Assembly: GCA_964583985.1 (NCBI GenBank)
Contig: CAZOYD010000041.1
Span: 14,453-32,980, forward strand
DNA length: 18,528 nucleotides
Reading direction: 5' to 3'
Origin: an uncultured archaeon
Lineage (GTDB): Archaea; Asgardarchaeota; Lokiarchaeia; Sigyniarchaeales; SOKP01
This document shows, in pieces, positions 501 to 18,528 of this stretch (its first letter is position 1; each line of letters begins with the position of its first letter). The notes beneath the pieces were generated by a model. The model was not told the origin of the DNA, made no database searches, and saw only the letters and a program-made list of their open reading frames with translations. The translations under genes and the position numbers were made by a program.

Positions 501-977
501 TCACCATTTTTGAATCATTCTGTGCTTTCTTCTCCTATTAGGAAGTTTTACTATGCTGAACCAAAAATCTTCAATACATTGCACCACTTTTATAAATTGC
601 TCCATATCAACTGGTTTAGTTATGTAACAATTAGCATGCAATTGATAAGTTTTCATGATATCTTCCTCTGCTGAAGAAGTTGTTAAAATTACTATTGGAA
701 TTCTTTTTAGAACATTATCAACTTTAAGTTCTGCAAGTACCTCCCTACCATCTTTTCTTGGTAAATTAAGGTCTAGGATGATCAAGTCGGGATTGAGCGG
801 TTCTTTATATTTTCCGGCTCCTCTTAAAATATCCATGGCTTCTATACCATCTCTGGCTACGTGAAGAATATTACTTAAATTACTTTCTATGAATGCTTCT
901 TTTGTTAAACGAATATCCCCTGGATTATCTTCAACCAATAATATTTCGATAGCTCGTACATCTTTCTTTGGAGACAA
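501..977 (-). CDS. Rcp1-like stand-alone response regulator (REC)
   Basis: Motifs ILLVEDNPGD, IILDLNLPRKDG, VILTTSSAEEDI, ANCYITKP and EDFWF are typical of Rcp1-type receivers. The track start GTG(989) lies inside the GGGTGA SD motif, so TTG at 977, just after the kinase stop, is the more likely start. Confidence 0.93.
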   Translation of the reverse strand: MSPKKDVRAIEILLVEDNPGDIRLTKEAFIESNLSNILHVARDGIEAMDILRGAGKYKEPLNPDLIILDLNLPRKDGREVLAELKVDNVLKRIPIVILTTSSAEEDIMKTYQLHANCYITKPVDMEQFIKVVQCIEDFWFSIVKLPNRRRKHRMIQKW

Positions 978-978
978 C

Positions 979-2685: not shown

Positions 2686-2869
2686 AATGAAATTAATTTC
2701 TGAGTTTTAATTTATTTAGCTAAAGTTGATGTTTAATCTAGATTTCGAGTTATCTTCTTGTACTTCTACTTTTTTCCTACTACTTTTACTATTCATTTCT
2801 ATTATCCTGCTTAAAATTTCACAAACTTATTATTCTTCAGTTCCTTGGGAAAGATTTGATCAATTTACT

Positions 2870-3010
2870 GATAATTTTATGTAAAACGTATTAATTTGAT
2901 TTTTACATTACATAAATGAAAAAAGTTAAATATAAATTTTTACATATTTTTAGAAGGAATAGTTAAAAAAAGTTAAATTAGTGTAAAAATCTTTTATAAA
3001 GATTAATTAT
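2870..3010. promoter_or_regulatory. Divergent promoter region with TATA-like boxes and repeated TGTAAAA(A) elements
   Basis: Minus strand: AATATGTAAAAA-TTTATATT (2948-2929). Plus strand: GTGTAAAAATC-TTTTATAAA (2981-3000). Inverted pair ATGTAAAA(2879-2886)/TTTTACAT(2901-2908). Confidence 0.45.
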
Positions 3011-3162
3011 AATCAACCAAATTAACAAAAATAATAAATCATTGTGTTATTATTTTAAATGAATTTCAAGTCGGATTTAATTATTTCCATCAAAATAAGC
3101 AGAATTGTTCGAAATTATAATAATAAAATCTGATCTTGATCAAAAAAAAAGGTATAGTTGGA

Positions 3163-4299
3163 ATGGTAGAAAAAAAGAAGATTGATATATTATTAATTGA
3201 GGATAATCCTGGTGATATTCGCCTTGTAAAAGAAATTCTAAAACAATCAAATCATTTCGAATATTCTTTTAATACATCTACCACTCTTAGTGAAGGATTA
3301 GAAATTTTTTTATGGAAAAAAATTGATATCATTTTATTAGATTTGAGCCTACCCGATTGTGATGGATTAAACACGGTCTCGATTTTAAAAAAAAAAATAG
3401 GTAATGTACCTATAATTATATTGACTGGCAATACCGATGATGAGTTAGCAATTAAAGCAGTCAAAGAGGGTATACAAGATTATATTGTGAAAGGGGAATT
3501 GACTTTATCACTTTTGGAACGGTCAATAATATATGCTAGAGAGAGAAGTCAAAATGAAGAGATTTTAAAGATCTCAGAAGAAAATTATAGGCAAGCTTAT
3601 CAACGAGCTAATTTTTATAAAGATATATTTACACATAATATGAATAATCTTCTCCAAGGAGTATTATCAGCATCTCAATTGTTTGAAATTCATTTACAGG
3701 GAATTTCGATTCAATCTGGATTGAGAGATGTTATAGAAATTATTGATGACCAAATATCTAAAGGATCTAATTTAATATTAAATATAAAAAGACTCACTCA
3801 AGTTGAAGAAAATCTCCTTCCTATTGAAACAATTGATTTTTTGAATATATTACGAGAAGAAATTCAAAGTATAAAGTTTATATACAAAAATAAAAAAGTG
3901 GACATAACAGTTATTTCGCCATATCAAAAAGTTCTTGTTTTAGCAAATGATTTTCTCCGTTCTATATTGCAAAATTTAGCATCTAATGCGATTAGATTCA
4001 ATTACAATCCTATTATTGAAATAACAATAAAAATTACTGAAGAAAATATAGATAGTGCTAAATATTTCAAAATCGAGTTTTCAGATAATGGTATTGGAAT
4101 AGAAGACGAATGGAAAAATGAAATCCTAAATAAAGGTTCTAAGGATGAACCATTAAACCGAGGGATCGGACTAGGTTTATTATTAGTTCGAAAGATTGTA
4201 GAAAGTTATCATGGCGAGATTTGCGTTGAAAATCGCATCAAGGACGATCATACACAAGGAAGTAATTTCGTTATTTTAATTCCTAGAGGTGAGCAATAA
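3163..4299 (+). CDS. Sensorless hybrid kinase REC-HisKA-HATPase
   Basis: REC: ILLIEDNPGD, ILLDLSLPD, IILTG, DYIVKG. H-box FTHNMNNLLQ. NLASNAIRF, DNGIGI, GIGLGL. ATG at 3163 is preferred over the track TTG at 3136. Confidence 0.92.
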   Translation: MVEKKKIDILLIEDNPGDIRLVKEILKQSNHFEYSFNTSTTLSEGLEIFLWKKIDIILLDLSLPDCDGLNTVSILKKKIGNVPIIILTGNTDDELAIKAVKEGIQDYIVKGELTLSLLERSIIYARERSQNEEILKISEENYRQAYQRANFYKDIFTHNMNNLLQGVLSASQLFEIHLQGISIQSGLRDVIEIIDDQISKGSNLILNIKRLTQVEENLLPIETIDFLNILREEIQSIKFIYKNKKVDITVISPYQKVLVLANDFLRSILQNLASNAIRFNYNPIIEITIKITEENIDSAKYFKIEFSDNGIGIEDEWKNEILNKGSKDEPLNRGIGLGLLLVRKIVESYHGEICVENRIKDDHTQGSNFVILIPRGEQ

Positions 4300-4661
4300 T
4301 ATCAAACATATTTATTGTTGAAGATGATCTATTACTGTTAAAAACTTTTGAGATGTTATTTGCATCAAAGGGGTTTTCGATAACGAAAGCTATTAATGGA
4401 GAAAGAGCTGTTAAAGAATTTAAAGAAGCAAATCCTAAACCAGATATCATCTTGATGGACCATCGCATGCCCATAAAAAATGGACTTGAAGCTTCTAAAG
4501 AAATCTTACAGTTCGACCCCACAGCGAAGATTATTTTCATTAGTGCTGATAGAAGTATTAAAAATGAAGCTGTTGCTTTAGGAGCATTAGATTTTGTTGA
4601 AAAACCATTTGACTTTAGTTTTCTTCTAAATCGTATTAATGAGATTTTAACTATAGTTTAG
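4299..4661 (+). CDS. CheY-like stand-alone response regulator (120 aa)
   Basis: The frame extends upstream of the track ATG(4353) to give (M)SNIFIVEDDLLLLKTFEM..., which restores beta1 and the acidic pair. Also IILMDHRMP, FISA, VEKPF. An in-frame TGA at 4290-4292 bounds the ORF. ATA at 4299 overlaps the upstream TAA and follows GAGGTGA. Confidence 0.9.
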   Translation: MSNIFIVEDDLLLLKTFEMLFASKGFSITKAINGERAVKEFKEANPKPDIILMDHRMPIKNGLEASKEILQFDPTAKIIFISADRSIKNEAVALGALDFVEKPFDFSFLLNRINEILTIV

Positions 4662-4766: not shown

Positions 4767-5072
4767 TATGCAAACTCAATTGAACATAATACAAATGATA
4801 TTCCCGAAATCGCAATTCAAATTTCTCAACATTCTAAATTTTTCGAGATTTCTTTTATAGATAACGGAATTCAAATTCCCGATATTTCTAAGAAAAACAT
4901 TTTTATGAATGAAGTTAACTCTAAAGATAAGTTCAATAGAGTTGGATTAGGATTAACATGTGTTAAAAAAATATTAGATACCCTTAATGGTTCAACATTG
5001 GTAGAGAATAAAACAACAGATGATTTTACACGAGGAAGCATATTCAAAGTATAATTACCAGCAATTACATAA
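4767..5072 (+). pseudogene. Truncated HATPase_c (histidine kinase ATPase domain) remnant
   Basis: Translation YANSIEHNTNDIPEIAIQISQHSKFFEISFIDNGIQIPD...RVGLGLTCVKKILDTLNGSTLVENKTTDDFTRGSIFKV*LPAIT*. In-frame TAG at 4764-4766, no start codon or HisKA upstream, and a premature TAA at 5052-5054 in the last strand. Confidence 0.8.
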
Positions 5073-5270
5073 GATGCATGATTACTATTTTTAGACTCTT
5101 AATATGTCTACATATGATTTATTTTGTTTTACGCTCTGATATTTTACGGAATTTATGAATTGTTACACATAATATTAAATACTCTTTCTCTAGATCCGTT
5201 CTTAGCAAAAATTATTCATCACTTAACAATAATTTTCTAACAGTAATTTTAAGTATAGGGATGGGTGTCA

Positions 5271-8200
5271 ATGGTAGTGCAAAATCAGATAAAGATTTTA
5301 ATAGTTGATGATAGCCCCCGAGATGTAAATCTAATAAAAATACATTTAAAAGATCTTATACATAATTCTTATCATACTTATGTATCTCATTCCCTAGCAG
5401 ATTCGGAAAATTTACTAAATCAGAATCAAATTGATATTGTCTTATTAGATATAGATCTATTAGATAGTAAGGGAATGGAAACTATAGATAAAATGTTAGA
5501 TTTAGCAGATAATACTCCGATTGTTATATTTACTATAAATGGAGAAGATGATCTTGGATTAAAGGCTATTAAAAAAGGCATCCAAGATTACTTATTTAAG
5601 GATAGATTCGATAGTCAACTATTAACGCACTCAATTGAATACTCCATTGCGCGAAAAAAGTTGGAACATGAATTAAATCCCTCTAAAAAAGTATTGGAAA
5701 TTATACAACAGGAACATGAATCTAAGGTGGAACAAGCACCTAATGAATTACAGTCTGATCCGGAAATTTTTAAACTATTTGCTCAAACTAGTCCAATAGG
5801 AATAGTGATTTTAAATAAACAGGGGGATATTACATTTGCAAATAGGCATGCAGAAATTGCTTTGGAACTTTCTAAAGATGATATTATTAAACGCAAGTAC
5901 AATGCTCCAGAATGGAAAATGACTGATTATGAAGGGAATGATTTTCCACCTGAGGAGCTACCCTTTAATATAGTGAAAGTTACTCTTTCACCTTTACTTG
6001 ACGTTAAACATGCAATTGAACACTCAAATGGCAAAAGGATATTCCTTTCGATTAATGCGACCCCTCTTCTAAATGAAAGTGGGGGATTTAATGGAATGAT
6101 CGCAACTATCAACAATGTAACTGAGAGTGTTAAAGCTGAAAAAAAATTAAAAGCCTCTTTAAAAAGATACCAAGAATTGTTTAATAGCATTGATAGTGGA
6201 GTTATTGTTTATAAGGCAACAGATGATGGCTTGAATTTTATAATTAAAGAATTTAACTCGGCAGCAGAGAGAATTGATAATTTAAATAGAGAAAATATCA
6301 TTGGAAAGGAAGTCACTGAAATTTTTCCGGGAATTAAAGATTTTGGGCTTTTTAGTGTCTTTCAAAAAGTGTGGAAAACAGGAGTACCAGAACATCAATC
6401 TTCATCCTATTATCAAGATAATAGAATTGCAGGTTGGAGGCAGAATTATGTGTATAAATTAACTTCAGGCGATATTGTTGCGATATATAATGATCTGACG
6501 CAGAATAAAGAAACAGAACAGAAATTATTGGAATTTGATTTTCTTTTAAATGAACGATTAAAGGAGTTAAATTGCTTATATGAAATTTCGCAAGTAGCTG
6601 AAAAACCAGGAATCACGATTGAACAAATTCTTTATGAATTTGTTAATTTAATCCCGCTTGCGTGGCAGTTTCCAAAAAAAACATATTCAAGAATTGAATA
6701 TAATGGAAAAAGCTATCAGAGTGCCAATTATAATAAGACAAAGTTGATTGTAACCATCAAGGAGATAATAATTGACAAACCATTAATTATCACGATCTAT
6801 TCCTCCTCTCAAAAGACGCCCTTTCTTGAAGAAGAAAAACAATTAACAAAGGAGATTGGCATTCGTTTGAAATCAATAATCCAACGAAAACTTGCTGAAG
6901 AAGAGCTAAGAAATTCAAAAGAAAAATACAAAATTCTGTATGAAGAGGCTCCAATTGCTTACTTTTCGATTGATCTAGACGGGACAATTCAAAAATGCAA
7001 TAATGCAGCAGAAAAATTATTAGGTTATTCCAAGGAAGAATTGTTAAAAATGACTGCTTTTGACCTGTATTTCAATTCTGAAGATGGATTGGTGAAAGCT
7101 AAAAAAATATTCAAGGAATTCACTAAAGGTTATTCCATAATAGATGAAGAATTGCAGATGAAACATAAAAATCAAAATCCGATTTGGATCAGTCTAACTG
7201 TAAAACCAGTCCTCGATAAAACAAATAAAGTCATTGCATCCCGTTCAATGGTCATGGATATTAGCGAACGAGTAAAGGCTAAAGAAGAGATCGAAGACTT
7301 AGCTAAATTTCCTTCTGAAGATCCCAACCCCGTATTAAGAACTACTAGTGAATTTATAATTTATGCGAATCAAGCAGGGTGTGATATGTTTGATTGCAGA
7401 ATCGGATATAGAATCCCATATAATTTACGAGAATCAATCAAAAACGCATATTTAGAAAAAAAACCACAAAAAAAAGAACTGAAAATTAAGGATCGATTTT
7501 ACTCAATGTCTTTTTTTCCAATTCAAAATACAAATTACGTAAATGTTTATGGACATGATATTACTGATCTTAAATTAACTCAGAGAAAACTCAAAGATGA
7601 ACGAGCGAAAGTAGAGCAATATCTTGAGTTAGCAGGAGTAATAATGAGAGCTTTAGATAATAATGGAGATATTGTATTACTCAATAAGAAGGGATGTGAA
7701 ATTTTGGGATATGAGAGTGGAGAGTTATTGGGAAAAAATTGGTTTGAGACTTGCCTTCCGGATTATGAGAAAGAAAGGATACTAAAAGTGTTTGAAGATT
7801 CAATGATTACGAAAAATGAAGGTTATTATTACGTTGAAAATTATGTTACTACGAAAACTGGCGAAGAATTACTCATTAAATGGCGGAACATTGTAGTATT
7901 TGATGAAAATAAAAAAATAATTGGTACATTAAGTTCAGGTGAAAATATTACAGAAAATAAAAAAGCATTAGTTAAACTTGAACTTTCAGAAGAAAAATAT
8001 AAAAATTTGATTGAATCCTCAGCAATGGGTTTAATAAAGATTGATCTTCAAAGTAATGAAATCGTTTATATCAATCCAAAATTAATAGAGATTCTCGGAT
8101 ACAATGTATACGAATTAAAAAATGCAAATTCTTTTTACGAGATAATTCATCCTGACGATCGATATTTGTTTTCAAAATCCTTCGAAACCAAAGAGATGGA

Positions 8201-9029
8201 ATTTAGAATTTTTTCAAAAGTTGGAAAATTGAAATATTTATCCGGTTCACTACTACCTCAATATAATATCAATGGTGATGTATTGAGTTATAAGATTTGG
8301 GTCCAAGATATTACTCAACAAAAAGAAATTCTCATGATTAAAAATAATCTATTAACGAGATTTTCTCATGAATTTAAAACACCCCTGATATCGTTAATTG
8401 GGTTTACTGATTTTTTTTTAATGGAATATAAAGATCTTTTAGATACTAGAGCAATTTCATTCTTAAATAATATTAAGAATGGTAGTGAAAAACTAAAAAG
8501 ACTTGTTAACTCGTTCATAGAAAGCTCACAATTAGAAACTGACTTGGTAAATTTAAATTTGAGTCATGGAAATATAATTGAGGTGGTTAAAAAAAGCTTA
8601 AATGATTTGCAAGGACTTATTCAACTCAGGAAACACACTGTCCATCTTGATCTAAATGAAAATGTCCTGTTTTATTTTGATAAAGAGAAAATTTACGTGG
8701 TAATAATGAATTTATTGGTTAATGCGATTAATTACACGCCTAATGGAGGATTAATCTCGATTAAATCTATTGTTATGGATAAATCTATTGAAATATGCAT
8801 AAAAGATAATGGAATTGGGTTTACTGAAGAAGAGAAAGAAAATTTATTTAAACCTTTTGGAAAAGTAGAAAGATATGGAAAAGGATGGGATGTAGTTTCT
8901 GAAGGCATGGGAATGGGATTATTCATTTCAAAAGAAATAATTAAACTACACGGAGGAACGATTAAGATTGAATCTGAGGGAAGAAATAAGGGTAGTAAGT
9001 TCATATTTTCGGTTCCTATTAAAATTTAG
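5271..9029 (+). CDS. Giant cytoplasmic hybrid kinase: REC-PAS-PAS-(GAF-like)-PASx4-HisKA-HATPase
   Basis: Intact REC (IVDD, VLLDID, IFT, YLFK). About six PAS/PAC units, plus an 'LNERLKELNCLYEIS...WQFP...FLEEEK' GAF-like segment. H-box FSHEFKTPL, NLLVNAINY, DNGIGF, GMGMGL. The start is uncertain among 5265, 5271 and 5277. Confidence 0.93.
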   Translation: MVVQNQIKILIVDDSPRDVNLIKIHLKDLIHNSYHTYVSHSLADSENLLNQNQIDIVLLDIDLLDSKGMETIDKMLDLADNTPIVIFTINGEDDLGLKAIKKGIQDYLFKDRFDSQLLTHSIEYSIARKKLEHELNPSKKVLEIIQQEHESKVEQAPNELQSDPEIFKLFAQTSPIGIVILNKQGDITFANRHAEIALELSKDDIIKRKYNAPEWKMTDYEGNDFPPEELPFNIVKVTLSPLLDVKHAIEHSNGKRIFLSINATPLLNESGGFNGMIATINNVTESVKAEKKLKASLKRYQELFNSIDSGVIVYKATDDGLNFIIKEFNSAAERIDNLNRENIIGKEVTEIFPGIKDFGLFSVFQKVWKTGVPEHQSSSYYQDNRIAGWRQNYVYKLTSGDIVAIYNDLTQNKETEQKLLEFDFLLNERLKELNCLYEISQVAEKPGITIEQILYEFVNLIPLAWQFPKKTYSRIEYNGKSYQSANYNKTKLIVTIKEIIIDKPLIITIYSSSQKTPFLEEEKQLTKEIGIRLKSIIQRKLAEEELRNSKEKYKILYEEAPIAYFSIDLDGTIQKCNNAAEKLLGYSKEELLKMTAFDLYFNSEDGLVKAKKIFKEFTKGYSIIDEELQMKHKNQNPIWISLTVKPVLDKTNKVIASRSMVMDISERVKAKEEIEDLAKFPSEDPNPVLRTTSEFIIYANQAGCDMFDCRIGYRIPYNLRESIKNAYLEKKPQKKELKIKDRFYSMSFFPIQNTNYVNVYGHDITDLKLTQRKLKDERAKVEQYLELAGVIMRALDNNGDIVLLNKKGCEILGYESGELLGKNWFETCLPDYEKERILKVFEDSMITKNEGYYYVENYVTTKTGEELLIKWRNIVVFDENKKIIGTLSSGENITENKKALVKLELSEEKYKNLIESSAMGLIKIDLQSNEIVYINPKLIEILGYNVYELKNANSFYEIIHPDDRYLFSKSFETKEMEFRIFSKVGKLKYLSGSLLPQYNINGDVLSYKIWVQDITQQKEILMIKNNLLTRFSHEFKTPLISLIGFTDFFLMEYKDLLDTRAISFLNNIKNGSEKLKRLVNSFIESSQLETDLVNLNLSHGNIIEVVKKSLNDLQGLIQLRKHTVHLDLNENVLFYFDKEKIYVVIMNLLVNAINYTPNGGLISIKSIVMDKSIEICIKDNGIGFTEEEKENLFKPFGKVERYGKGWDVVSEGMGMGLFISKEIIKLHGGTIKIESEGRNKGSKFIFSVPIKI

Positions 9030-9157
9030 CTATTTCAATTAAACTGTAATATTAATTAAGAATTAATTTCTTAAATTTTGTCATTAACCTAAAAAAGTTG
9101 TATTTAGGAATAATAAATTATGTTTATGTCAAAAATTTGCTTGAATGGGTGATTAAA

Positions 9158-12100
9158 ATAACAGAAGTAATCATTAAAATACTTATTATCGAAAAGGACC
9201 TTAGGAATGTGCAATTGTTAGAGGATATTTTAAAAAACGCTAATGATGCTTGTTATAAAATAGAAAAGTGTAAATCAATCTCAGAAACAATTATTTATCT
9301 ACAAAAGAGTAAATGTGATGTCATACTTTGCAGTTTAAATCTACCAGACTTAAAAGGAGCTGATGTAATTAAAAAAGTTTTAGAAATCGCTCCTAAGGTT
9401 CCAGTCATTCTTATGGTAGAAAAAAATGAAGAAGATATTGCTCTACAAGCTTTGAAAATGGGGATTCAAGACTTTTTTTTCAAAGAAGATTTAACCAGTT
9501 CATTATTGAATCGATCGATTCGATACGTTATTGAAAAAAAAGAACTTAAAAGTCCATTATTAAAATCAGAAAGCAAATTAAAAAAAATTCATTCTGATTT
9601 CAATAAAATCGTTTCTGAAAAGAATAATAATTTAAGCTCCTCTGAAGAGCACTATAAGTATTTATTCGAGACCCCCTTCTCTGCGATAATCATTCTTGAT
9701 CACAATCTAAGGATTATTAATTGTAATACAACTTGTGAAATTTATTTTGGATACACTAAATTAGAGCTTGAGAATACCCATCTAATGCACTTATCGATTT
9801 TTTCAAAAACAAATCAAAATATCATTTTACAGAAACTTAAGAGCTTAAAAACTGATGCTCAGTTTATACCATCTGAATACAATGTATTCAGAAAAGATGG
9901 GAGCAATATTTGGGTAACTGTTGCGATGTCTATAGTTAAATTGAAAGAAAGTGAAGAATTTCTGATGATGTTCCAAGATATTACTGATAGATATAGGACC
10001 GAAAAAAAATTAAAAACAGTTGAAGAACAGTTTAAAATTTTCGGAGATCACTCATATATAGGAATATTTCTTCTTCAAGATGGAGAAATAAAATATGTAA
10101 ATGAAAAAGTATCTTTAATAAACGGATATTCAATTCAAGAAATGTTAAGATGGAGTATAGATCATATTTCTACTATTATTCATCCAGAAGATCAGACTTT
10201 TATTATTGAACAAGCAAAAAAAAAGGAAAGAGGAGATGCGGATGTTCTAAATGAAATTCAATACAGAATCATTTCAAAATCTGGGAATATTAAATGGGTT
10301 AATCAATACTCAAAGACAATTCTCTACAATGAAAAAACTGCGGATTTATGTTTGTGGATCGACATTACGAATAATAAAATGGTTATAGAAGAAGCTATAA
10401 GATCAGGGATAATGTCTCAAAATTTGTTTGAGAATAATCCCTTTTGTATTTTTCTTACAGATTTTAATGGTCAAATTTTAAATGCTAATAAAGCATTTTT
10501 AGAGAGATTAGGAATTTCCTTAATTGAAATTAAAAAAAAAAAAATTCAGGATATAGTAAAAAAAGATGGCAAGAAATTACTGTTAGAAATGTTAAAAACT
10601 AAATTTAAGGAAACAGAATTTAAAAATATTAAGATTAGCATCATAGATAATGATGGATTTGAAAACAACTTTCAAATTTATGCAATGCAAATTGAAGAAT
10701 ATGACCAATCAAATAGCATTCTATTTTTTGCACGAGACATAACTGAGAGGAGACTATTTGAAGAACGATTTAAAGATTCTGAAAATAAACTCGCTAAATT
10801 AATAGAAACAATTCCTCTTGCAATTTTAATTAGTAATCCTGAGGGAGAAGTTTCAGAATGTAATTTTTATGCGGTGAAAGTTTTTGGGTATGATTCTAAA
10901 GATGAGCTTTTAAAGATACCCGCACTCGACCATTACGATGATCAAAAAGATAGAAAAAAATTCCTGGAAATGCTTGAAAAGAGGGAAAGCGTACAGAATT
11001 TTGAGGTGAGTTTTAAACGTAAGGATCAGACTAAATTTTTTGCTTCCATGACTTCATCATCACACGAGATTAATGGTCAAACTTATTTTATTAATGCTAT
11101 AGACGATATCTCTGAGAGAAAAAAAATAGAAGAATTAATTAAGGATTTAGCGAAAATTCCAGATGAAGCACCTTACCCTATTATGAGAGTAAGTGCGGAT
11201 TTTATTCTCTATTTAAATGAACCTGGAAAAATACTCTTTGATCTTAAACCAGGAAATAGGATACCATTATTCTTAAGGGAAAAAGTTAAAGAATGTCTGC
11301 AAAATCATGAGATTATAATAAAAGAGCTAAATCTTAATGAAAGATTTTATTCACTTTACGTCACACCTGTAGAAGGTAGCGATTATATCAACATTTACGC
11401 CATAGAAATTACTGAACTAATGGAAAAAGATGAAAAGTTAAAATTATCATTAGAAAAATATAAGAATCTCGTTGATAACCTAAATGATGGAGTATTAATC
11501 ATGGACTTAGAGGGAAAAATTCTATATGCGAGCCCTCAGATTTATGATCTAACTGGATATACACCAAACGATATTATTGGAAAAACTGGAAACTCCTTTA
11601 TACATCCCAAAGACCTGAACATAGCTATTGAAGCGTATAAAAAGGTGATAAAACAGAAAAAAAAAGTTTTTCTTGATTATCAGATTATCGATAAAGCTGG
11701 TAAATATATAGATGTTTCTGCTAGCGGATTACTGATTAAAATTGACGGGGATGATAGGATGCTCGCAGTTATGAAAGATGTTACTGAAAAATTAATCTCA
11801 GAACAGAAGTTAAAAGAATCGGAGGAAAAGTACAGACATTTGTTTGAATTTTCACCCTATTATATATTACTTTTAAATCAGAGCTGGGATGTTCTTGATT
11901 GTAATTATAATATCAAGGAAATTTTAGGATATTCGAAAGAAGAAATAATCGGTAGAAATGCAATTGATATCCCTTTAATGGATAAGAATAAGCTTGATGA
12001 ATTAAAAAAGAGAACGGATTATTTATTTGAGGGAAAGAAGCTATCATCTTTTGAAATGGAAGTTCCTAAGAAAGATGGAACGATAATCTGGGTAAAATCA

Positions 12101-13654
12101 CAACCATCTTTAGTAAGGATTGGAGATGTGCAATATATATACATAATTTCTATGGATATTTCAAATGAGAAATTATTTGAGAAAAAATTAAAAGAATCCG
12201 AGCAGAAATTTGGTACCATTGCTAACGAATCATTACTAGGTATTGCGATTATTCAAGATGATCTTATAAAATACATGAACGAGAGGTTTGCAGATTTTTT
12301 ACAATATTCTGTACAGGAAATTGAGAACTGGGCTCCTGGAGAATTTAAAAAGTTCATTCATCCCGATGATAGGAGTTTAGTCACAGCTCAAGTTGAAAAG
12401 AAACAAAAAGGATTAAAAGGAATAATTAAACACTATCAATATAGAATTTTTAAAAAAGATGACACGATTAAGTGGTTGGATAATTACTCAAATACGATAA
12501 TATATGAGGGAAGGTCAGCTGACTTAGTCACTGTAATTGACATTACAGATCAGAAAAATACTGAACAGAAACTAAAAGATTCGGAGGAAAAATATAAGCA
12601 TCTTTTTGAAACTTCACCAAATGGTCTAATCTTGTTAAATATCGAAGGGAAAATACTCGAATGTAATTCAACATTAAAGAAGATAATAGGTTATTCTGAA
12701 AGTGAGCTTATAGGAAATAATTTCATAGATTTACCTATTTATATCGATAATGGGTTGGAACTACTTCAAACAGGACTAAATGATTTGATCAATAAAAATG
12801 AGTTAACTCATATTGAATTGCAAATTAAAACAAAAGAACAAACACTTAATTGGATCCAAATTAGATCCAGTCTAATAGAGTTAAAGCAAGAAAATATTAT
12901 TCTTACTGTTATAATTGATATCACCTCGGATAAAAAAATAGAACAAATGAAGTCTGATCTATTAATGAAATTATCTCATGAATTTAAGACCCCTCTAATC
13001 TCAATAAAAGGTTTTTCAGAATTTTTGATCAAACAATATCATTCACAACTAGATGAAAAAGCTATCTCATATCTCAATAATGTTGTAAATGGAAGTGATA
13101 GATTAAGACTTCTTATTAACTCCTTTATTGACAGTTTTCAATTAGACGATTATTTCAAAAAGTATGCTCGATTGGACATCAAAGAGATTTACTTATTTGA
13201 ATTAATAAAAAATGCAGTAAAGGATATGGAGGGGCTCAGTAAAATGAGAAATCATAAAATTCACGTGAATATCAATAATAATATAAAAGTGAATGTTGAT
13301 AAAGAAAAGATGTATTCCGTTATTGTAAACTTATTGCTCAATGCTATTAAATATACCCAAAAAGGAGGAGAAATAACAATTCGCTCAGAAATTACAGGAA
13401 ATTTCATTCAAATCTCAATTAAAGACACTGGTATAGGTTTAAGAAGAGAGGATCAAGATAACTTATTTAAAGCATTTGGAAAAATAAATCTTGATAAGAA
13501 TAGATGGGATATAATTACTGATGGAATGGGGATGGGATTGTACCTCTCAAAAGAGATAATACTCCTGCATGGTGGTAAGATGTGGGTCGAATCTGAAGGA
13601 ATTGATAAAGGTTCAACTTTCTATTTTACAATCCCTCTTGTTATTGCGAGATAG
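9158..13654 (+). CDS. Giant cytoplasmic hybrid kinase: pseudo-REC-(PAS)x9-HisKA-HATPase
   Basis: The N-terminal receiver fold has Ser in place of the phospho-Asp (VILCSLNLPD). About nine PAS/PAC units. H-box LSHEFKTPL, NLLLNAIKY, DTGIGL, GMGMGL. Likely start is ATA 9158 after GGGTGA; alternatives are GTG 9149 and TTG 9098. Confidence 0.93.
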   Translation: MTEVIIKILIIEKDLRNVQLLEDILKNANDACYKIEKCKSISETIIYLQKSKCDVILCSLNLPDLKGADVIKKVLEIAPKVPVILMVEKNEEDIALQALKMGIQDFFFKEDLTSSLLNRSIRYVIEKKELKSPLLKSESKLKKIHSDFNKIVSEKNNNLSSSEEHYKYLFETPFSAIIILDHNLRIINCNTTCEIYFGYTKLELENTHLMHLSIFSKTNQNIILQKLKSLKTDAQFIPSEYNVFRKDGSNIWVTVAMSIVKLKESEEFLMMFQDITDRYRTEKKLKTVEEQFKIFGDHSYIGIFLLQDGEIKYVNEKVSLINGYSIQEMLRWSIDHISTIIHPEDQTFIIEQAKKKERGDADVLNEIQYRIISKSGNIKWVNQYSKTILYNEKTADLCLWIDITNNKMVIEEAIRSGIMSQNLFENNPFCIFLTDFNGQILNANKAFLERLGISLIEIKKKKIQDIVKKDGKKLLLEMLKTKFKETEFKNIKISIIDNDGFENNFQIYAMQIEEYDQSNSILFFARDITERRLFEERFKDSENKLAKLIETIPLAILISNPEGEVSECNFYAVKVFGYDSKDELLKIPALDHYDDQKDRKKFLEMLEKRESVQNFEVSFKRKDQTKFFASMTSSSHEINGQTYFINAIDDISERKKIEELIKDLAKIPDEAPYPIMRVSADFILYLNEPGKILFDLKPGNRIPLFLREKVKECLQNHEIIIKELNLNERFYSLYVTPVEGSDYINIYAIEITELMEKDEKLKLSLEKYKNLVDNLNDGVLIMDLEGKILYASPQIYDLTGYTPNDIIGKTGNSFIHPKDLNIAIEAYKKVIKQKKKVFLDYQIIDKAGKYIDVSASGLLIKIDGDDRMLAVMKDVTEKLISEQKLKESEEKYRHLFEFSPYYILLLNQSWDVLDCNYNIKEILGYSKEEIIGRNAIDIPLMDKNKLDELKKRTDYLFEGKKLSSFEMEVPKKDGTIIWVKSQPSLVRIGDVQYIYIISMDISNEKLFEKKLKESEQKFGTIANESLLGIAIIQDDLIKYMNERFADFLQYSVQEIENWAPGEFKKFIHPDDRSLVTAQVEKKQKGLKGIIKHYQYRIFKKDDTIKWLDNYSNTIIYEGRSADLVTVIDITDQKNTEQKLKDSEEKYKHLFETSPNGLILLNIEGKILECNSTLKKIIGYSESELIGNNFIDLPIYIDNGLELLQTGLNDLINKNELTHIELQIKTKEQTLNWIQIRSSLIELKQENIILTVIIDITSDKKIEQMKSDLLMKLSHEFKTPLISIKGFSEFLIKQYHSQLDEKAISYLNNVVNGSDRLRLLINSFIDSFQLDDYFKKYARLDIKEIYLFELIKNAVKDMEGLSKMRNHKIHVNINNNIKVNVDKEKMYSVIVNLLLNAIKYTQKGGEITIRSEITGNFIQISIKDTGIGLRREDQDNLFKAFGKINLDKNRWDIITDGMGMGLYLSKEIILLHGGKMWVESEGIDKGSTFYFTIPLVIAR

Positions 13655-13663
13655 GATGATCCT

Positions 13664-14521
13664 TCATAGCTGCTCAAATAAAAAGTCGAAATCTGCCAAA
13701 TCAAAAGGTTTCATAATGTATCCATTTGCTCTTGTTTCTTCCATTTTTTCTTGTACTTTAAATCGTGGAATCGCAGTGATAAAATATACGGGTAAATCTT
13801 TTAAATTGTCAGAAAACTTTATCTTCTTGCAAACTTCAAAGCCACTGATGTCAGGAAGTATGACATCAAGTAATATCAATTTTGGTTTATAAGTCTTGAG
13901 TTTTTCTAAGCCAGCAGATCCCGTAAATTCACCTTTACAAGAATAACCCTTACTTTCAAAATAATTTGTGATGAGTTCGACCGTTGCTATGTCATCTTCA
14001 ATTAATAACACATCATATTCAGGTTCTAAATACATTTTTTCTTCATTTTTTGTTATAAATTTGCTTTCTAATTGTTTAGCTTGTTCAAAAACATTGTTAA
14101 TTATTCCTTTAATTTGTTCGTTGATTTCTCCATTGTAAGATTCGAGTATTAATTGAAGAAAACCTTTGATTGTTGTTAATTTTTGTTTTAGTTCATATGA
14201 AGCCGCAGAACTCAATTCTTTTTCAAACGTTGAACCGAAACGACTCATTTGTTCTGAATTTTGGTGAATAAAATTATTAACACTTTCCCTGATTAATTTT
14301 GATAGGGTACTGAATTCACTTTTTTCCACATAATCTTGCCATTTCTTTTCAGTCTCACGTGAAATATATACTGAAATTCGTTTCTTGTCTTCATAATAGT
14401 TTTTTTCACCTTCTTTCCATTTTTCAAATCCTTTGGTTATTCTTCCTTGCCATAAAGCTTGTTTTCCCGTCTCATGTTCATAGGATTCCATTTCTTCGGT
14501 TTTTTTAATAAGTAAGTTCAC
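13664..14521 (-). CDS. Putative transcriptional response regulator: Trp-rich motif-RHH-pseudoHisKA-REC (paralog 1)
   Basis: KKRISVYIS-helix(W)-TLSKLIRESVNNFI matches a ribbon-helix-helix pattern. ASYELKQKLTTIKGFLQLIL resembles an H-box with His->Tyr. The C-terminal REC is intact (LIEDD, LLDVILPD, FITA, MKPF). The exact start is uncertain because GTG 14521 sits within the SD. Confidence 0.85.
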   Translation of the reverse strand: MNLLIKKTEEMESYEHETGKQALWQGRITKGFEKWKEGEKNYYEDKKRISVYISRETEKKWQDYVEKSEFSTLSKLIRESVNNFIHQNSEQMSRFGSTFEKELSSAASYELKQKLTTIKGFLQLILESYNGEINEQIKGIINNVFEQAKQLESKFITKNEEKMYLEPEYDVLLIEDDIATVELITNYFESKGYSCKGEFTGSAGLEKLKTYKPKLILLDVILPDISGFEVCKKIKFSDNLKDLPVYFITAIPRFKVQEKMEETRANGYIMKPFDLADFDFLFEQL

Positions 14522-14629
14522 CTTGACATTGTGTGGTTATTTTTTCTTTTGACATAAAAATCAACTCGGTTACATAATAATAATACCTTGCAACAAATAA
14601 ATGTGTATATCTTAGGTAGATTCTGTATT

Positions 14630-14667
14630 TTTATCACTTGATAAATCATTGATATTAATAGTTGATA
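14630..14667. promoter_or_regulatory. Candidate operator: TTTATCA-CT-TGATAAA palindrome plus three TTGATA repeats
   Basis: Perfect 7-2-7 inverted repeat at 14630-14645. TTGATA occurs at 14638, 14649 and 14662, upstream of the RHH-REC gene. Confidence 0.35.
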
Positions 14668-14727
14668 ATTATAAATATTATTATTACTAAAAAGCACCGT
14701 AGATTATATAAATAGTAGAATCTTGAA

Positions 14728-14754
14728 AAGATTTTCTTTTTTTTTTAAAATCTT
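14728..14754 (-). terminator. Possible hairpin downstream of RHH-REC paralog 2
   Basis: AAGATTTT(14728-14735) and AAAATCTT(14747-14754) form an inverted repeat about 20 nt after the stop at 14774. The stem is weak and AT-rich. Confidence 0.2.
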
Positions 14755-14773
14755 CATACATTCTATAGTTTAT

Positions 14774-15640
14774 TCATAAATACTTAAACAGAAATTCAAA
14801 ATCTGTTAAATCAAATGGTTTTAATATGTATCCATCTGCTTGAGTTTCTTCTAATTTCTCTTGTACTTTAAATCCAGGCATGGCAGTCACAAATATGACT
14901 GGTAAATCTTTATACTTACTATTATGCTTAATTTTTTTACAAATATCAAATCCGCTTATATCTGGTAGAATGATATCTAGAAGAATAAGCTTAGGCATAT
15001 TCAGAATCAATTCCTCTAAACCATTTGCACCGGTATATACTCCTTTCGCCGAATAGCCTTGACTTGAAAAATAATTAGTTAATATTTCAACAGTTGCCAA
15101 ATCATCCTCTATTATAAGCACATCTAATTGCATCGTGCTTGTATTTTTATCGTCCACTTTATTAATAAATTTACTCTCTAATTGTTGAGCCTGGATTAAT
15201 AGGTTTTCGACTATTGATATTATCTCTTCATTTAAATTTAGTTTATACTTTTCTAAAATAAGCTGTAAAAAACCTTTAATGATTGTTAATTTTTGCTTTA
15301 AATAGTATAAGGTGTTAGGATTTAATTGGTAATCAAGATCTAGGTTAAAATTTCCGATTTGTTTTGATTTTTCTTTTATGTATTCATCAACACTCACTCG
15401 GATTAATTTTGAGATAGTTTTAGATTCCACAGAATTAATGAAATCTTGCCACTTTTGTTCTGTTTCGTGAGAAATATACACCGAAATTCTTTTTTTATTG
15501 CCATAAATATTTTTTTCTCCTTCCTTCCACCTTTTAAAACCTTTTGTTAATTCCCCATGCCAAATTGCTTGTCTTCCAGTTTCTTCCTCATAACGTTTCA
15601 TTTCACTAGTTATATTAAGCTTATTTGAGATTGATATCAC
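14774..15640 (-). CDS. Putative transcriptional response regulator: Trp-rich motif-RHH-pseudoHisKA-REC (paralog 2)
   Basis: Colinear paralog of 13664..14521: YEEETGRQAIWHGELTKGFKRWKEGEKN, KKRISVYISHETEQKWQDF, TISKLIRVSVDEYI, TLYYLKQKLTIIKGFLQLILE, and an intact REC (IIEDD, LLDIILPD, FVTA, LKPF). Confidence 0.85.
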   Translation of the reverse strand: MISISNKLNITSEMKRYEEETGRQAIWHGELTKGFKRWKEGEKNIYGNKKRISVYISHETEQKWQDFINSVESKTISKLIRVSVDEYIKEKSKQIGNFNLDLDYQLNPNTLYYLKQKLTIIKGFLQLILEKYKLNLNEEIISIVENLLIQAQQLESKFINKVDDKNTSTMQLDVLIIEDDLATVEILTNYFSSQGYSAKGVYTGANGLEELILNMPKLILLDIILPDISGFDICKKIKHNSKYKDLPVIFVTAMPGFKVQEKLEETQADGYILKPFDLTDFEFLFKYL

Positions 15641-15735
15641 GACCTGTTTTTAATTTTGCATACTGGTAATACCATGAAATTCTAGAACCTCGTAAAATAA
15701 TATTTATCGTAATTTTTCTTGAATAAAATAAAAAT

Positions 15736-17208
15736 TTATCGAGTCACCAATCCCCTTTTCATGAACATTTCTTTAAGTTCGGAGATGACGAGACTTCTTT
15801 GATTCTGTTTTGAACCATCTTCTGATCTTACGATTTTTGGAGGTGGTGGCGGTGGCTTAAGGGAATTAAGGGAGATTAACGTATCATTTAATTCTTTTTT
15901 CGGTGCTATGGGAGGAGTAAATGACGGTGTGGTTTGCAATAACGAATTTTTTGCATCTTTTATTTTCGTTTCATCGATTTTTTCAACTTTATTATTTATT
16001 TCAACTGTGGTATCTGGAGGCATAAAGACTTTCAACCTTTGAGGAGGACCTTTAGCTCTTTTGACTTTTTTAGAACTTGATGTTGCTTCTATCTTTTTCT
16101 TTTTTTTCTTTGATTTTTCTTTGATCATGTCATTATCAGCGATATATTCCATTGGAACTTTTTCAAAAGGCACAGAGAAGAAAGACTGAGAGAGATCAGC
16201 TGGGATTAATCTAAATAAGATTCGTTTTACTTCCGATAATTCACCTACAACATTATCCATCAATTTCAAATTAATGTCTAAGATTTTCTGAAGTTTTTCT
16301 TCAATATTTGGTAAAATCTTTTCTGCTGTTGACTTCGATTTATCTTTGGAGAAAATATTTTTTATGCTTCTAGCTATTTCAGGCTCGTTGGAATAAAAGT
16401 TGTAAATACTAGTAGGAATTATTTCGAAATTCCACGATTTCTCCCCGTTCATAAAAACATCAGATATTTTATGAGTTAAATATTCAAGTTTAATTTGAAA
16501 ATCAGGATCTTCGACAACATCTGAATCTGCTTTATTTAATAGCAGTACAAAATACGGATTTTCATTAAGAAATCCCAAAATTTCAAGAATCCCATTTAAA
16601 TATTTAATACCATCCTCATAACGCAAATCATCTTGCGAATCAAACACGAAAATTAAAACATCAACATTAATAAAAAATCGTTCAGGAGATTCAAGATATT
16701 CTTCAATATGATCTTTTTGACCCCCCAAATCCCATAAAACCAAATCTAATTTATCAGATTGAAATTCTTCAACGTTGGCACCTATAGTGGGTTCTAAATT
16801 AATCATGTCATTATAATTGTACTCATTCATCATTCTATTTAGTAATGAAGTCTTCCCAGCATAATCTAAACCAGCAATAACCACCTTCATTTTCACTTTT
16901 TTAAGATAAAGGTTTCTCTTATTCCACGCATTTGTGATTAAATAAGAAGCAACTAATGATGTATTAAATGTAGATTTTTCTATGAATACTTTTTTGGCAC
17001 GATTCTCATAATCGGTTGACTTTAATAAAGATAAATCTCTTATTGTGTGAACATTAATTTTTTTAAATTTTTCAACATCCTCTATTTTAATATTTTTTAA
17101 TACTTCAATATCTAAATCAAGAATTAAACTTAGACTGGATGGATAATAATCAATATTTAAAAATCGGTCACAAAAATATTTCACAATTGTTTTTGCAGAT
17201 TCAGACAT
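15736..17208 (-). CDS. Multidomain Arf-like small GTPase (HhH-like N-domain, G-domain, coiled coil, polybasic and polyproline tail)
   Basis: G1 GLDYAGKTS, G2 EPTIG, G3 WDLGGQ, G4 NKAD, G5-like PTSI. The GLDxAGKT / PTIG / WDxGGQ set is the Arf/Arl signature. Also KEKSKKKKKK, KPPPPPPK and a terminal helix RSLVISELKEMFMKR. Confidence 0.9.
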   Translation of the reverse strand: MSESAKTIVKYFCDRFLNIDYYPSSLSLILDLDIEVLKNIKIEDVEKFKKINVHTIRDLSLLKSTDYENRAKKVFIEKSTFNTSLVASYLITNAWNKRNLYLKKVKMKVVIAGLDYAGKTSLLNRMMNEYNYNDMINLEPTIGANVEEFQSDKLDLVLWDLGGQKDHIEEYLESPERFFINVDVLIFVFDSQDDLRYEDGIKYLNGILEILGFLNENPYFVLLLNKADSDVVEDPDFQIKLEYLTHKISDVFMNGEKSWNFEIIPTSIYNFYSNEPEIARSIKNIFSKDKSKSTAEKILPNIEEKLQKILDINLKLMDNVVGELSEVKRILFRLIPADLSQSFFSVPFEKVPMEYIADNDMIKEKSKKKKKKIEATSSSKKVKRAKGPPQRLKVFMPPDTTVEINNKVEKIDETKIKDAKNSLLQTTPSFTPPIAPKKELNDTLISLNSLKPPPPPPKIVRSEDGSKQNQRSLVISELKEMFMKRGLVTR

Positions 17209-17442
17209 ATTTATGTAATAAACTACACTTTTTTAAATTTTTACATATTCTTGAAAATTTATATCCATAAATTTTTATTAAGATAGATTTTTGTACTAAT
17301 ATAAAGAATGATCAGTTAAAATATAAAGAGTTATAAAGGGGCTTTTTAACATATTTAGTATAGGATAAGATCTTTTGTTATAAAAAAAAGTACTTTTTTT
17401 TTATTTTTTTGTAACAATCATAATAGATTTAGAGATTAGAAA
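17209..17442. promoter_or_regulatory. Divergent promoter between the Arf-like GTPase and the uDENN-Rag operon
   Basis: Minus-strand TTTAAAAA (17237-17230) lies at about -29 to -22 from ATG 17208 with no SD, which suggests a leaderless transcript. On the plus strand, AATATAAAGA is repeated at 17298 and 17320 and TTATAAAG is at 17331. Confidence 0.5.
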
Positions 17443-18111
17443 ATGGAATTGAAAGATTTAGAAAATGAGGAATTCAACAAGTATTATCAATTATTTAAAA
17501 ACGATTTGGACGAAAACCCATTTATTATAGTTATAGGGAAATATGATCATATTTTGGGACCAAGAGCTTTATATTCGTCAGTGAATTTAAAGGATGAAGG
17601 ATTTGTTAAAAATCTCTTGAGAGATGCGTTAAATACCAAAAATGAATTCCTAATTTTAGATTTTAATCGATTTTATTCTCAAATTTATAAAATTGAAGTT
17701 GATGATGAAAATGCAAGAGGAAAAAAACAACTTTATGCTATAATATTAATTCGAGATGTTGAATATCCAATGATCCCTATTCTGCATTTTAAACGAATTG
17801 GCATGATTTTTCGCAAAATAGCACCTGAAGATATTTTAAAAAATAACATTACCGCTTTTGAAAAGTTTTTTAATGAAATATGTGATATATATATGAGAAA
17901 AGGGGAAGTTCTACCATTAGAATCCACCAATTTGCAGATAAGAAGCGGTATAAACACAATTCAAGGGTTCTGTGAATTAATATTAGAGCAAGCAAAAAAA
18001 GAGGATAAAATCTTTAAGGAAGACATTAAAAATTATATCGAGCTAATGCTCGATTCATGTGATGATGTTATAGAAGCATTAGAACAACCCTTCTCCTCAG
18101 CTAGCAAATAA
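17443..18111 (+). CDS. uDENN/longin (folliculin/SMCR8/C9orf72-like) domain fused to a His-less HisKA-like helical hairpin
   Basis: IIVIGKYDHILGPRALY matches the uDENN beta1-'GP'-beta2 motif. VDDENARGKKQLYAIILI matches the FLCN/SMCR8 'DxxARG' arginine-finger loop. The C-terminal NLQIRSGINTIQGFCELILE...IKNYIELMLDSCDDVIEALE matches a DHp pattern with Leu at the His position. Confidence 0.75.
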   Translation: MELKDLENEEFNKYYQLFKNDLDENPFIIVIGKYDHILGPRALYSSVNLKDEGFVKNLLRDALNTKNEFLILDFNRFYSQIYKIEVDDENARGKKQLYAIILIRDVEYPMIPILHFKRIGMIFRKIAPEDILKNNITAFEKFFNEICDIYMRKGEVLPLESTNLQIRSGINTIQGFCELILEQAKKEDKIFKEDIKNYIELMLDSCDDVIEALEQPFSSASK

Positions 18112-18127
18112 GAATAGGTATAATAAA

Positions 18128-18528
18128 ATGAGTCAGAATAAAAAATTAATATTAATTGGACCTTCGGGAGTCGGAAAGACTACCATTAAAAATATTTTTT
18201 TTGATAAAGTTAATCCCACTCAATTATTAGAATTTCCTTTAGAACCATCAAGAGGGATTAATTCAGAAGTATATTCTTTTCAAAATACACACTTAGGAAT
18301 TTTCGATTTAGCGGGTCAAGAAAACAATAATTGGTTTTCAAAGAAAGGGAATGAAATTTTTCAGCAAAGCAATGCAATAATTTGTATTTTTGATATCAAA
18401 AATTCCCTTGAATCTATTATCGAATTCATGATAAAATTACATAAACTTAGAGAGGAATTAAATTTATCTCAATGTTATTTTGCTTCATTTTTACATAAAA
18501 CTGATAGAGTAAACCCGACTTATGTAGA
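18128..18528 (+). CDS. Rag/Gtr-like small GTPase, 3' end runs off the window
   Basis: Not in the ORF track. Manual translation: MSQNKKLILIGPSGVGKTTIKNIFFDKVNPTQLLEFPLEPSRGINSEVYSFQNTHLGIFDLAGQENNNWFSKKGNEIFQQSNAIICIFDIKNS...FASFLHKTDRV. It has G1 GPSGVGKT, G3 DLAGQ and G4 HKTD; a His-type G4 and the 'I..IFF' helix after G1 are Rag-like. It starts 16 nt after the uDENN gene. Confidence 0.88.
   Translation, partial: MSQNKKLILIGPSGVGKTTIKNIFFDKVNPTQLLEFPLEPSRGINSEVYSFQNTHLGIFDLAGQENNNWFSKKGNEIFQQSNAIICIFDIKNSLESIIEFMIKLHKLREELNLSQCYFASFLHKTDRVNPTYV

Follow-up and report, generated by a model that had tools for sequence, protein, structure and literature searches.

Whether bacterial-type two-component signalling is coupled to eukaryote-type small GTPases is the question raised by a stretch of DNA from an uncultured archaeon (Lokiarchaeia; GenBank assembly GCA_964583985.1), in which a gene here called FL lies between two GTPase genes and beside a group of histidine kinase genes. 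The stretch, referred to below as the window, comprises 18,528 nt (G+C ~29%) at positions 14453-32980 of contig CAZOYD010000041.1 (contig C41 of the source genome, G000), and its right edge is the end of the contig. The finding spans five genes (DR1, DR2, GT1, FL and GT2; Table 1). FL encodes a longin domain of the FLCN/NPRL2 type, with a GP motif and a conserved arginine, fused to a hairpin that is derived from HisKA and lacks both the histidine and the ATPase domain, and the window forms the central part of an accessory island, conserved in Lokiarchaeia, in which two-component genes are interspersed with genes for small GTPases. The original prediction, made from the letters of the window, had placed three genes for such hairpins near four soluble kinases and two small GTPases. 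This layout was borne out by Pfam and by the coordinates: HK1-HK4, the four PAS/REC kinases, contain no hydrophobic segment of transmembrane strength, FL ends 16 nt upstream of the Rag-like gene GT2 (18112-18127), and FL and GT1 stand head-to-head, 234 nt apart.

The FL protein was modelled with AlphaFold2 (AF2) at a predicted local distance difference test (pLDDT) score of 81, and the model consists of a longin fold (b-b-a-b-b-b-a-a) followed by a hairpin. Foldseek with this model returned first 8dhb_J from the active FLCN GTPase-activating protein (GAP) complex (E = 1.6e-4), followed by GATOR1 and the SEA complex. Comparison by VIA gave Z 12.0 against the GATOR1 chain 9v0j_A (root-mean-square deviation (rmsd) 3.0, 132 residues aligned) and Z 11.3 against FLCN 6nzd_H (rmsd 2.8, 127 aligned). 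The Pfam family Folliculin (PF11704) was matched by 50/50 FL relatives at E ≤ 0.05 (best 3.8e-5); in FL the match covers aa 71-127, which includes Arg92 and Gly93, and these two residues together with Gly39 and Pro40 are invariant among 50 aligned relatives. Arg92, the candidate arginine finger, is presumably the counterpart of FLCN Arg164. Searches of the PDB with FL, both as a single sequence and as a profile, returned no folliculin or kinase chain and chance matches only (E > 0.1). FL has neither a DENN domain nor an NPRL2-specific C-terminal domain, its C-terminus being the HisKA-like hairpin, and neither a second FL copy nor a partner longin subunit was found in the source genome. According to a report in Traffic (2025; PMC12290439), the pair of GP motif (before strand 2) and arginine finger is the mark of the FLCN, NPRL2/3 and SMCR8 longins and of a class of Asgard longins. 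On these motifs, FL is a candidate GAP for a Rag- or Arf-type GTPase.

The hairpins are of the dimerization and histidine phosphotransfer (DHp) type. They read ...YELKQKLTTIKGFLQLILE in DR1, ...YYLKQKLTIIKGFLQLILE in DR2 and ...NLQIRSGINTIQGFCELILE in FL. The phospho-acceptor position, located 12 residues before the Phe of the GF motif, is occupied by Tyr109 (DR1), Tyr112 (DR2) and Leu164 (FL), so that none of the three has a His there, and Pfam found no HATPase_c domain, the catalytic and ATP-binding (CA) part of a kinase, in any of these proteins. The predicted trio of CA-less, His-less hairpin genes was thus confirmed by sequence, Pfam and AF2. Pfam HisKA was matched at E = 0.0025 by DR1 and 0.17 by FL, both under the gathering score, and among relatives by 16/20 for DR (best 3.8e-11) and 6/50 for FL. 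Aligned as profiles with hhalign, the FL and DR families matched in the hairpin at E = 3.5e-4, the FL profile recovered a protein with six HisKA repeats (E = 1.2e-11) among 1.84 billion proteins, and AF2 predicted a two-helix hairpin in both FL and DR1. Judged by these profiles and models, the hairpins of FL, DR1 and DR2 are HisKA-derived and not chance look-alikes. The repeat protein itself (P0225, 556 aa, from a metagenome) carries six tandem HisKA-like hairpins (Pfam HisKA 1.6e-37) behind a Gly/Ala-rich hydrophobic N-terminus, with Phe at the His position in the repeats read.

The core 'I.GF..LILE', which the original prediction had noted as shared by the three genes, is indeed present in all of them. 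However, 'I.GF..L.LE' differs little from the general consensus of HisKA, and the kinases of the island read IIGFTDLLLE; the core therefore reflects common HisKA ancestry, and a special mutual kinship of the three hairpins was rejected.

The acceptor site was compared across both families. Among the 50 aligned FL relatives the consensus at this site is Leu and none has His, with Leu or Met in the ten relatives read. Across 13 representatives of longin-DHp clusters, the acceptor site is His in five (P0211, P0214, P0227, P0229 and P0234), Tyr in one and Leu in the group of the window copy. Three of the His-bearing, divergent relatives (P0227, P0229 and P0234) keep both His and the arginine; the distant relative P0227 lies between a hybrid kinase and four GTPases, with a receiver gene following 111 nt downstream, a layout that reads in sequence as a kinase -> receiver -> His -> receiver relay. 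P0211 and P0214 keep His, lack the arginine and are surrounded by two-component genes only. P0213 and P0215 have an extra N-terminal PAS domain, and P0213 stands head-to-head with a Rag GTPase gene. The two-component link of the longin is consequently found in domain fusions as well as in gene order, as longin-DHp in all members and as PAS-longin-DHp in some. The DR family has the motif S-H-A-L-K-E-P-L-T-T-I-K-G-F with His in most members, and Tyr only in close relatives of the window's proteins. Given that divergent FL relatives and most DR relatives keep His, these alignments establish the 'pseudo' state of the FL and DR proteins as derived. The comparison also indicates that the longin-DHp architecture is old, stands consistently in two-component surroundings and had an originally phosphorylatable hairpin; by analogy with Spo0B and ChpT, the ancestral longin-DHp and RHH-DHp-REC (ribbon-helix-helix, DHp, receiver) proteins probably took part in phosphotransfer.

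FL has 276 near relatives in Promethearchaeota/Lokiarchaeia, all annotated 'hypothetical', and the family worldwide forms 35 clusters at 50% identity. Linkage in relatives had been set beforehand as the test that could refute the prediction, and the longin/GTPase genes do adjoin two-component genes there: among 20 species-level genomes, a kinase was found at 18/20 FL loci and a GTPase at 20/20. The open reading frames (ORFs) in 379 kb around FL in these genomes included 51 kinases (2.7 expected from the overall density of the source genome), 63 GTPases (4.1 expected) and 51 receivers (2.1 expected), counts that show conservation and not a P-value and that overstate significance, since related genomes are not independent. 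The recurrent order begins with [RHH-DHp-REC (-)], a GTPase of ~500 aa (-), FL (+) and [a Rag-like GTPase of ~295 aa (+)], and continues with two PAS kinases (+), two paired Rag-like GTPases (~515 and ~445 aa) and a receiver of ~125 aa. This core order recurs and the outer flanks vary between loci. In most loci FL lies 41-209 nt upstream of same-strand kinase genes or of the Rag gene preceding them. The right half of the island was found at the end of contig C42 (8482-15273 of L065, which is C42:16000-31272, read in reverse), with two PAS kinases, a Rag-like GTPase pair of 439 and 504 aa (4-nt overlap) and a DivK-like receiver; the two contigs, C41 and C42, probably adjoin each other, the break between them falling within GT2 and the first kinase. 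Conservation of the neighbourhood across Asgard genomes had been proposed as a check; the gene order recurs, and FL is present in 56 of the 399 genomes of the phylum, all of them within the window's order.

Both GTPases next to FL were examined as possible partners. GT1 matched Pfam Gtr1_RagA (1.2e-22) and Arf (1.4e-21) and has its G domain at aa ~106-270, preceded by an N-terminal extension of 100 aa and followed by a long tail that is basic and rich in proline; its motifs (GLDYAGKT, PTIG, WDLGGQ and NKAD) we take to be Arf-like, and its N-terminus has no Met-Gly. The tail (15736-16140) contains a K-rich run and a P-P-P-P-P-P stretch. GT1 orthologues, which match across the entire protein length (at least 47% identity), were found in 38 of the 134 genomes of the family, and 37 of these 38 also have FL. 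Within genus g12, both genes are present in 11 genomes, one more (G217) has an FL fragment only, and 42 have neither; these co-occurrence counts are approximate, as orthologues were missed in G170 and G242 despite a GTPase of ~500 aa beside FL. Because it is co-inherited with FL, GT1 is the best candidate partner. GT2 (Pfam Gtr1_RagA 6e-15; G4 motif HKTD) is co-transcribed with FL by position, yet only around half of the loci contain it. Its full-length orthologue (L007:10686-11564, 292 aa) ends in 112 aa (L007:11226-11561) for which Pfam gave no roadblock match and only a weak match to Phage_rep_org_N (E = 0.006), presumably a winged-helix-type family; the non-G parts of the GTPases gave weak Pfam matches only (E 0.006-0.18).

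Single-domain receivers of one orthologous group, which has 20 members, are found repeatedly in the islands and in some cases adjoin FL. The member in the source genome is C42:24484-24867, and among solved structures this receiver has its best match in DivK (E = 5e-35; second-best match 2e-23). A complex of two FL copies and the island receiver was modelled with a score of 0.61, the best of three controls reaching 0.01; the score mark was reached by 58/80 solved complexes and 2/110 mismatched pairs, a calibration that holds only roughly for a three-chain job run with our own alignments. Runs share at least 85% of contacts, and the pLDDT of the partner is at least 84. On the FL side the modelled interface is formed by one copy through residues 163-182 and 201-208 of its hairpin and by the second copy through residues 206 and 210; on the receiver side it involves helix 1, the loops b4-a4 and b5-a5, and residue 58. 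An interface at these hairpin residues covers the H-box, of which R167, N171, T172, Q174, G175 and F176 are invariant among the 50 relatives. The model supports docking of the receiver on the FL hairpin in the canonical kinase-receiver pose.

As a whole the original interpretation was supported in part, by the gene linkage, the domain fusions and the docking model of the receiver. These observations can be drawn together in the following scheme. FL would dimerise through its hairpin, the nearby PAS kinases would set the phosphorylation state of the DivK-like receiver, and this receiver would bind the hairpin, which would have kept the receiver-docking face of a kinase. Binding would alter the longin domain in its activity or its location, and this domain may act via Arg92 as a GAP on GT1, on the co-transcribed Rag-like GT2, or on both. 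DR1 and DR2 would form a parallel transcriptional output of the same kinases, with their DHp mainly holding a DNA-binding dimer together. As a whole, comprising the anatomy and linkage of the island, a receiver-controlled FL GAP and the DR transcriptional branch, this is the explanation we prefer, tentatively and with slightly less than even confidence. Its most specific step, in which the phosphorylated DivK-like receiver docks on the His-less hairpin and thereby switches an Arg92-dependent GAP activity toward Arf/Rag-like GTPases, is by itself unlikely to be correct in full.

A number of results weigh against this explanation. In the VIA comparison generic longins (VAMP7/Sec22) reached Z 9-10, a narrow lead for the GAP type, so that the fold alone is not diagnostic of it. 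The window copy of FL scored below the curated Pfam cutoffs for both Folliculin (18.8 against 23.3 bits) and HisKA (12.4 against 26.9 bits). Across relatives the whole of FL is 57-86% identical, and at such identity the invariance of residues in the hairpin is not necessarily the sign of a surface for a partner. FL is also patchy, with 14/40 genomes of its own genus containing it and some genomes rated 100% complete lacking it, a distribution more in keeping with an accessory module than with a core regulator of growth. Structures of kinase-receiver complexes such as HK853-RR468 and Spo0B-Spo0F are available, so the pass of the docking model may reflect likeness only, and the model does not tell which receiver binds. 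Of the 27 full-size kinase ORFs in the source genome, seven are on C41 and C42, and part of the adjacency may on this account reflect a general signalling island. The DR family, finally, is located far from GTPases as well.

The alternative that survives best is that the hairpin serves as a four-helix-bundle dimeriser in place of a partner longin/DENN subunit, makes no contact with a receiver or kinase, and has the kinases nearby through co-regulation or membership of the signalling island just described. Eukaryotic longin GAPs are obligate dimers (structures 6nzd, 7t3b and 6v4u), a role that the hairpin could fill in a protein with no DENN domain and no second copy in its genome. The presence of both FL copies at the modelled interface is compatible with such a bundle, and FL has lost not only the His but also the H+1 and H+4 catalytic residues. 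Against mere dimerisation, the invariant residues from R167 to F176 occupy receiver-facing H-box/specificity positions and not merely the bundle core, relatives keep a His, a PAS sensor or a directly downstream receiver gene, and FL holds an operon position upstream of kinases in most loci. We regard this alternative as unlikely, though more probable than the two that follow.

A second possibility, which we consider quite improbable, is that FL is not a GAP and that the longin domain is a platform, guanine nucleotide exchange factor or effector for GTPases, like most longin/roadblock proteins, its arginine being structural. The near-equal scores of generic longins and the sub-threshold Folliculin match of the window copy are what this would lead one to expect, as is the persistence of P0211 and P0214 without the arginine. 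These Arg-less relatives, however, stand in purely two-component settings whereas the Arg-bearing ones adjoin GTPases, and the invariance of the GP motif and of the D-x-x-A-R-G arginine in 50 relatives also argues for a GAP, as does the fact that the same pair defines the GAP longins FLCN, NPRL2/3 and SMCR8 (PMC12290439). A reversed flow, in which the FL hairpin forms a mixed DHp bundle with the downstream kinases so that the GTPase state is the input and phosphorylation the output, has in its favour the same-strand position of FL upstream of kinases, the resemblance of FL helix 1 (INTIQGFCELILE) to that of the C42 kinases (LNAIIGFTDLLLE), with which it shares N, I, G, F, L, L and E, and the precedent of the RetS-GacS DHp heterodimers, but seems a poor prospect given that the receiver docks on an FL homodimer with high model confidence and that DHp heterodimers are rare among kinases.

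The transcriptional branch of the preferred scheme would consist of the two response regulators. DR1 and DR2 are paralogues, and the AF2 model of DR1 (pLDDT 79) contains the hairpin (H105-128/H135-160) and a REC fold. Residues D170, D176, D219, T249 and K271 of the REC domain are invariant in the DR family and correspond to the acidic pocket, the phospho-acceptor Asp, the Thr and the Lys. Foldseek with the DR1 model returned receiver structures (E = 5e-11) and no other domains, and is therefore silent on the ribbon-helix-helix (RHH) part and the hairpin. The assignment of an RHH domain is tentative: the DR1 model has two helices after an R-I-S-V-Y stretch, and RHH_1 was matched weakly by 3/18 DR relatives (best E = 0.007) and RHH_3 by 2/18, but a search of the PDB with the profile of the putative RHH found nothing. 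The proposal that these RHH-REC proteins belong to the GTPase module as pseudo-DHp components held only in part, since the hairpins are His-less here but the family normally has His and also occurs away from GTPases. A second tandem RHH-DHp-REC pair was found in the source genome (C1:113147-115276, -), with His kept in S-H-A-L-K-E-P-L-T-S-I-K-G-F/Y, no kinase on contig C1 and no GTPase within 50 kb; the idea that DR1 and DR2 are bound to the GTPase module is weakened by this pair. Read from the family alignment, the Tyr of DR1 and DR2 is a recent local change.

Both regulators begin with a Trp-rich mini-domain (Y-E-x-E-T-G-K-x-A-I-W...G-F-x-x-W-x-x-G-E-K; DR1 14396-14500, DR2 15510-15610), which was also detected on C10:54027-55238, C2:22078-24756, C7:46222-47049 and C3:78351-79946 (E 1e-5 to 7e-8). 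Apart from this mini-domain the four ORFs are unrelated, and it has the look of a mobile module.

Further features were noted among the flanking genes. Between the receiver at 4353-4661 and HK3, a HATPase_c fragment was found in nominally intergenic DNA (4767-5051, +; E = 6e-15 with a kinase-ATPase profile), which probably represents either a remnant or a free-standing short CA piece. The GT1/FL intergenic region and the divergent region between HK1 and HK2 (2686-3135) have the 15-mer AAATTTTTACATATT in common, at 17235-17249 and 2934-2948. This could be a promoter or operator element or a chance occurrence in AT-rich DNA, and as a single common 15-mer in such DNA it was not counted as evidence for a shared operator. 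Upstream on C41, within a further kinase/Rag-GTPase cluster, a HEPN gene (E = 5e-13) and a nucleotidyltransferase gene (E = 1.5e-10) with overlapping ends (4157-5157 of L066, which is C41:1-14600) look like a toxin-antitoxin insertion.

Table 1. Genes, domains and single sites in the window (nucleotide positions count from its first letter)
Feature	Nucleotides	Strand	Residues	Description and basis
Single-domain receiver	501-989	-	162 aa	Pfam Response_reg 5.3e-20
HK1	979-2685	-		PAS-HisKA-HATPase_c kinase (Pfam)
HK2	3136-4299	+		REC and HATPase_c, without Pfam HisKA match
Single-domain receiver	4353-4661	+		Pfam Response_reg 4.3e-18
HK3	5265-9029	+		Soluble kinase: REC, multiple PAS, HisKA, HATPase_c (Pfam)
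HK4	9098-13654	+		Soluble kinase: REC, multiple PAS, HisKA, HATPase_c (Pfam)
DR1	13664-14521	-	285 aa	Paralogue of DR2
DR1 REC domain	13670-14011	-		Pfam Response_reg 2.8e-19
DR1 DHp	14042-14209	-		Tyr109 codon 14195-14197
DR1 putative RHH	14240-14386	-		AF2; RHH_1/RHH_3 matches in few relatives
DR2	14774-15640	-	288 aa	Response regulator
DR2 REC domain	14780-15121	-		Pfam Response_reg 1.5e-19
DR2 CA-less DHp	15152-15319	-		Tyr112 codon 15305-15307
DR2 putative RHH	15350-15496	-		After N-terminal Trp-rich mini-domain
GT1	15736-17208	-	490 aa	Arf/Rag-like GTPase
Divergent intergenic region GT1/FL	17209-17442	.		AT-rich, presumed promoters
FL	17443-18111	+	222 aa	Longin-DHp, candidate GAP
FL longin domain	17515-17901	+	aa 25-153	FLCN/NPRL2-type; AF2, Foldseek, VIA
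FL GP motif	17557-17562	+	Gly39-Pro40	Invariant in 50 relatives
FL candidate arginine finger	17716-17718	+	Arg92	D-E-N-A-R-G; codon, invariant in 50 relatives
FL His-less DHp hairpin	17911-18084	+	aa 157-214	AF2, HisKA homology
FL H-box phospho-acceptor site	17932-17934	+	Leu164	Codon; count from GF motif
GT2	18128-18526	+		Rag-like GTPase, interrupted by contig end

The original prediction had presented the locus as a candidate new system, and in this it was anticipated by published work. Asgard NPRL2-like longins fused to two-component domains are described by Liu et al. 2020 (bioRxiv 10.1101/2020.10.19.343400), where Asgard growth control is surmised to centre on two-component systems, and FLCN/SMCR8-type Asgard longins with GP motif and arginine finger are described in PMC12290439; to that extent the general idea is already covered. 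In the text consulted, neither source reports a fusion to a His-less DHp or relatives that bear the His, and neither reports the conserved gene order, the RHH-DHp-REC regulators, the DivK-like receiver or the GTPase of 490 aa that is inherited together with FL. Literature searches found no paper beyond Liu et al. 2020 that ties this longin-DHp protein or this island to kinases, and none describing the His-bearing relatives, the DivK-like receiver, this protein or the island. Tran et al. 2024 noted that in a cultured strain GTPase genes are generally not in operons with longin genes, a rule to which the FL-GT2 pair is an exception, and called the pairing of Asgard GTPases with regulators from genome layout difficult. 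The island names a testable set consisting of a candidate GAP, a co-inherited GTPase, a co-transcribed Rag-like GTPase, a DivK-like receiver and two kinases, for which the His-bearing and the Arg-less relatives are natural controls.

If the preferred scheme is true, bacterial-type phosphorelays would drive Rag/Arf switches of the eukaryotic type in the archaea most closely related to eukaryotes, which would bear on the origin of nutrient signalling via Rag GTPases. A prokaryotic phosphorelay input into a FLCN/GATOR1-type GAP would then offer a living model of Rag-type wiring before TOR, and the His-bearing relatives would preserve an older, phosphotransfer version of it.

Among known systems, the eukaryotic longin GAPs FLCN (FLCN-FNIP2, acting on RagC/D), NPRL2 (GATOR1, RagA/B) and SMCR8 (with C9orf72, Arf) resemble FL in the longin fold (Z 11-12), the GP motif and the D-x-x-A-R-G arginine; FL in addition has a Rag-like and an Arf/Rag-like GTPase gene as neighbours. 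In contrast to these subunits, with which it shares 7-14% identity, FL has 222 aa, lacks a gene for a partner longin and carries a kinase hairpin where they have a C-terminal domain of the DENN or NPRL2 type.

The actinobacterial conservon (CvnA-D, Mfp; PMC13343842, PMC13621833) is a prokaryotic operon that couples a sensor kinase to a small Ras-like GTPase via a regulator of the roadblock/longin superfamily. It differs from the island in its MglB-type roadblock, DUF742 protein and MglA-like GTPase, in a regulator that is not fused to a kinase hairpin and in a core without a receiver domain. Neither DUF742 nor MglB families were among the Pfam matches of the window, and the conservon is compared as a functional analogue only. 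Spo0B and ChpT are DHp bundles without autophosphorylation that exchange phosphoryl groups with receivers, a behaviour that fits P0227, P0229, P0234 and most RHH-DHp-REC proteins, although Spo0B and ChpT keep a degenerate ATPase-like domain; the three hairpins of the window, being without His, cannot transfer phosphoryl groups in this way.

In Caulobacter, DivK binds DivL, a pseudokinase with Tyr in place of His. Unlike FL, DivL has retained an ATPase domain as well as PAS sensors, and its target is another kinase, CckA, and not a GTPase regulator; the pair is bacterial, and no homology to FL beyond the domain families is implied. The likeness to the island lies in a HisKA hairpin that lacks a functional His (Tyr in DivL, DR1 and DR2; Leu in FL) that is paired with a DivK-like single-domain receiver, and it would extend to docking, the receiver having been modelled on the FL hairpin.

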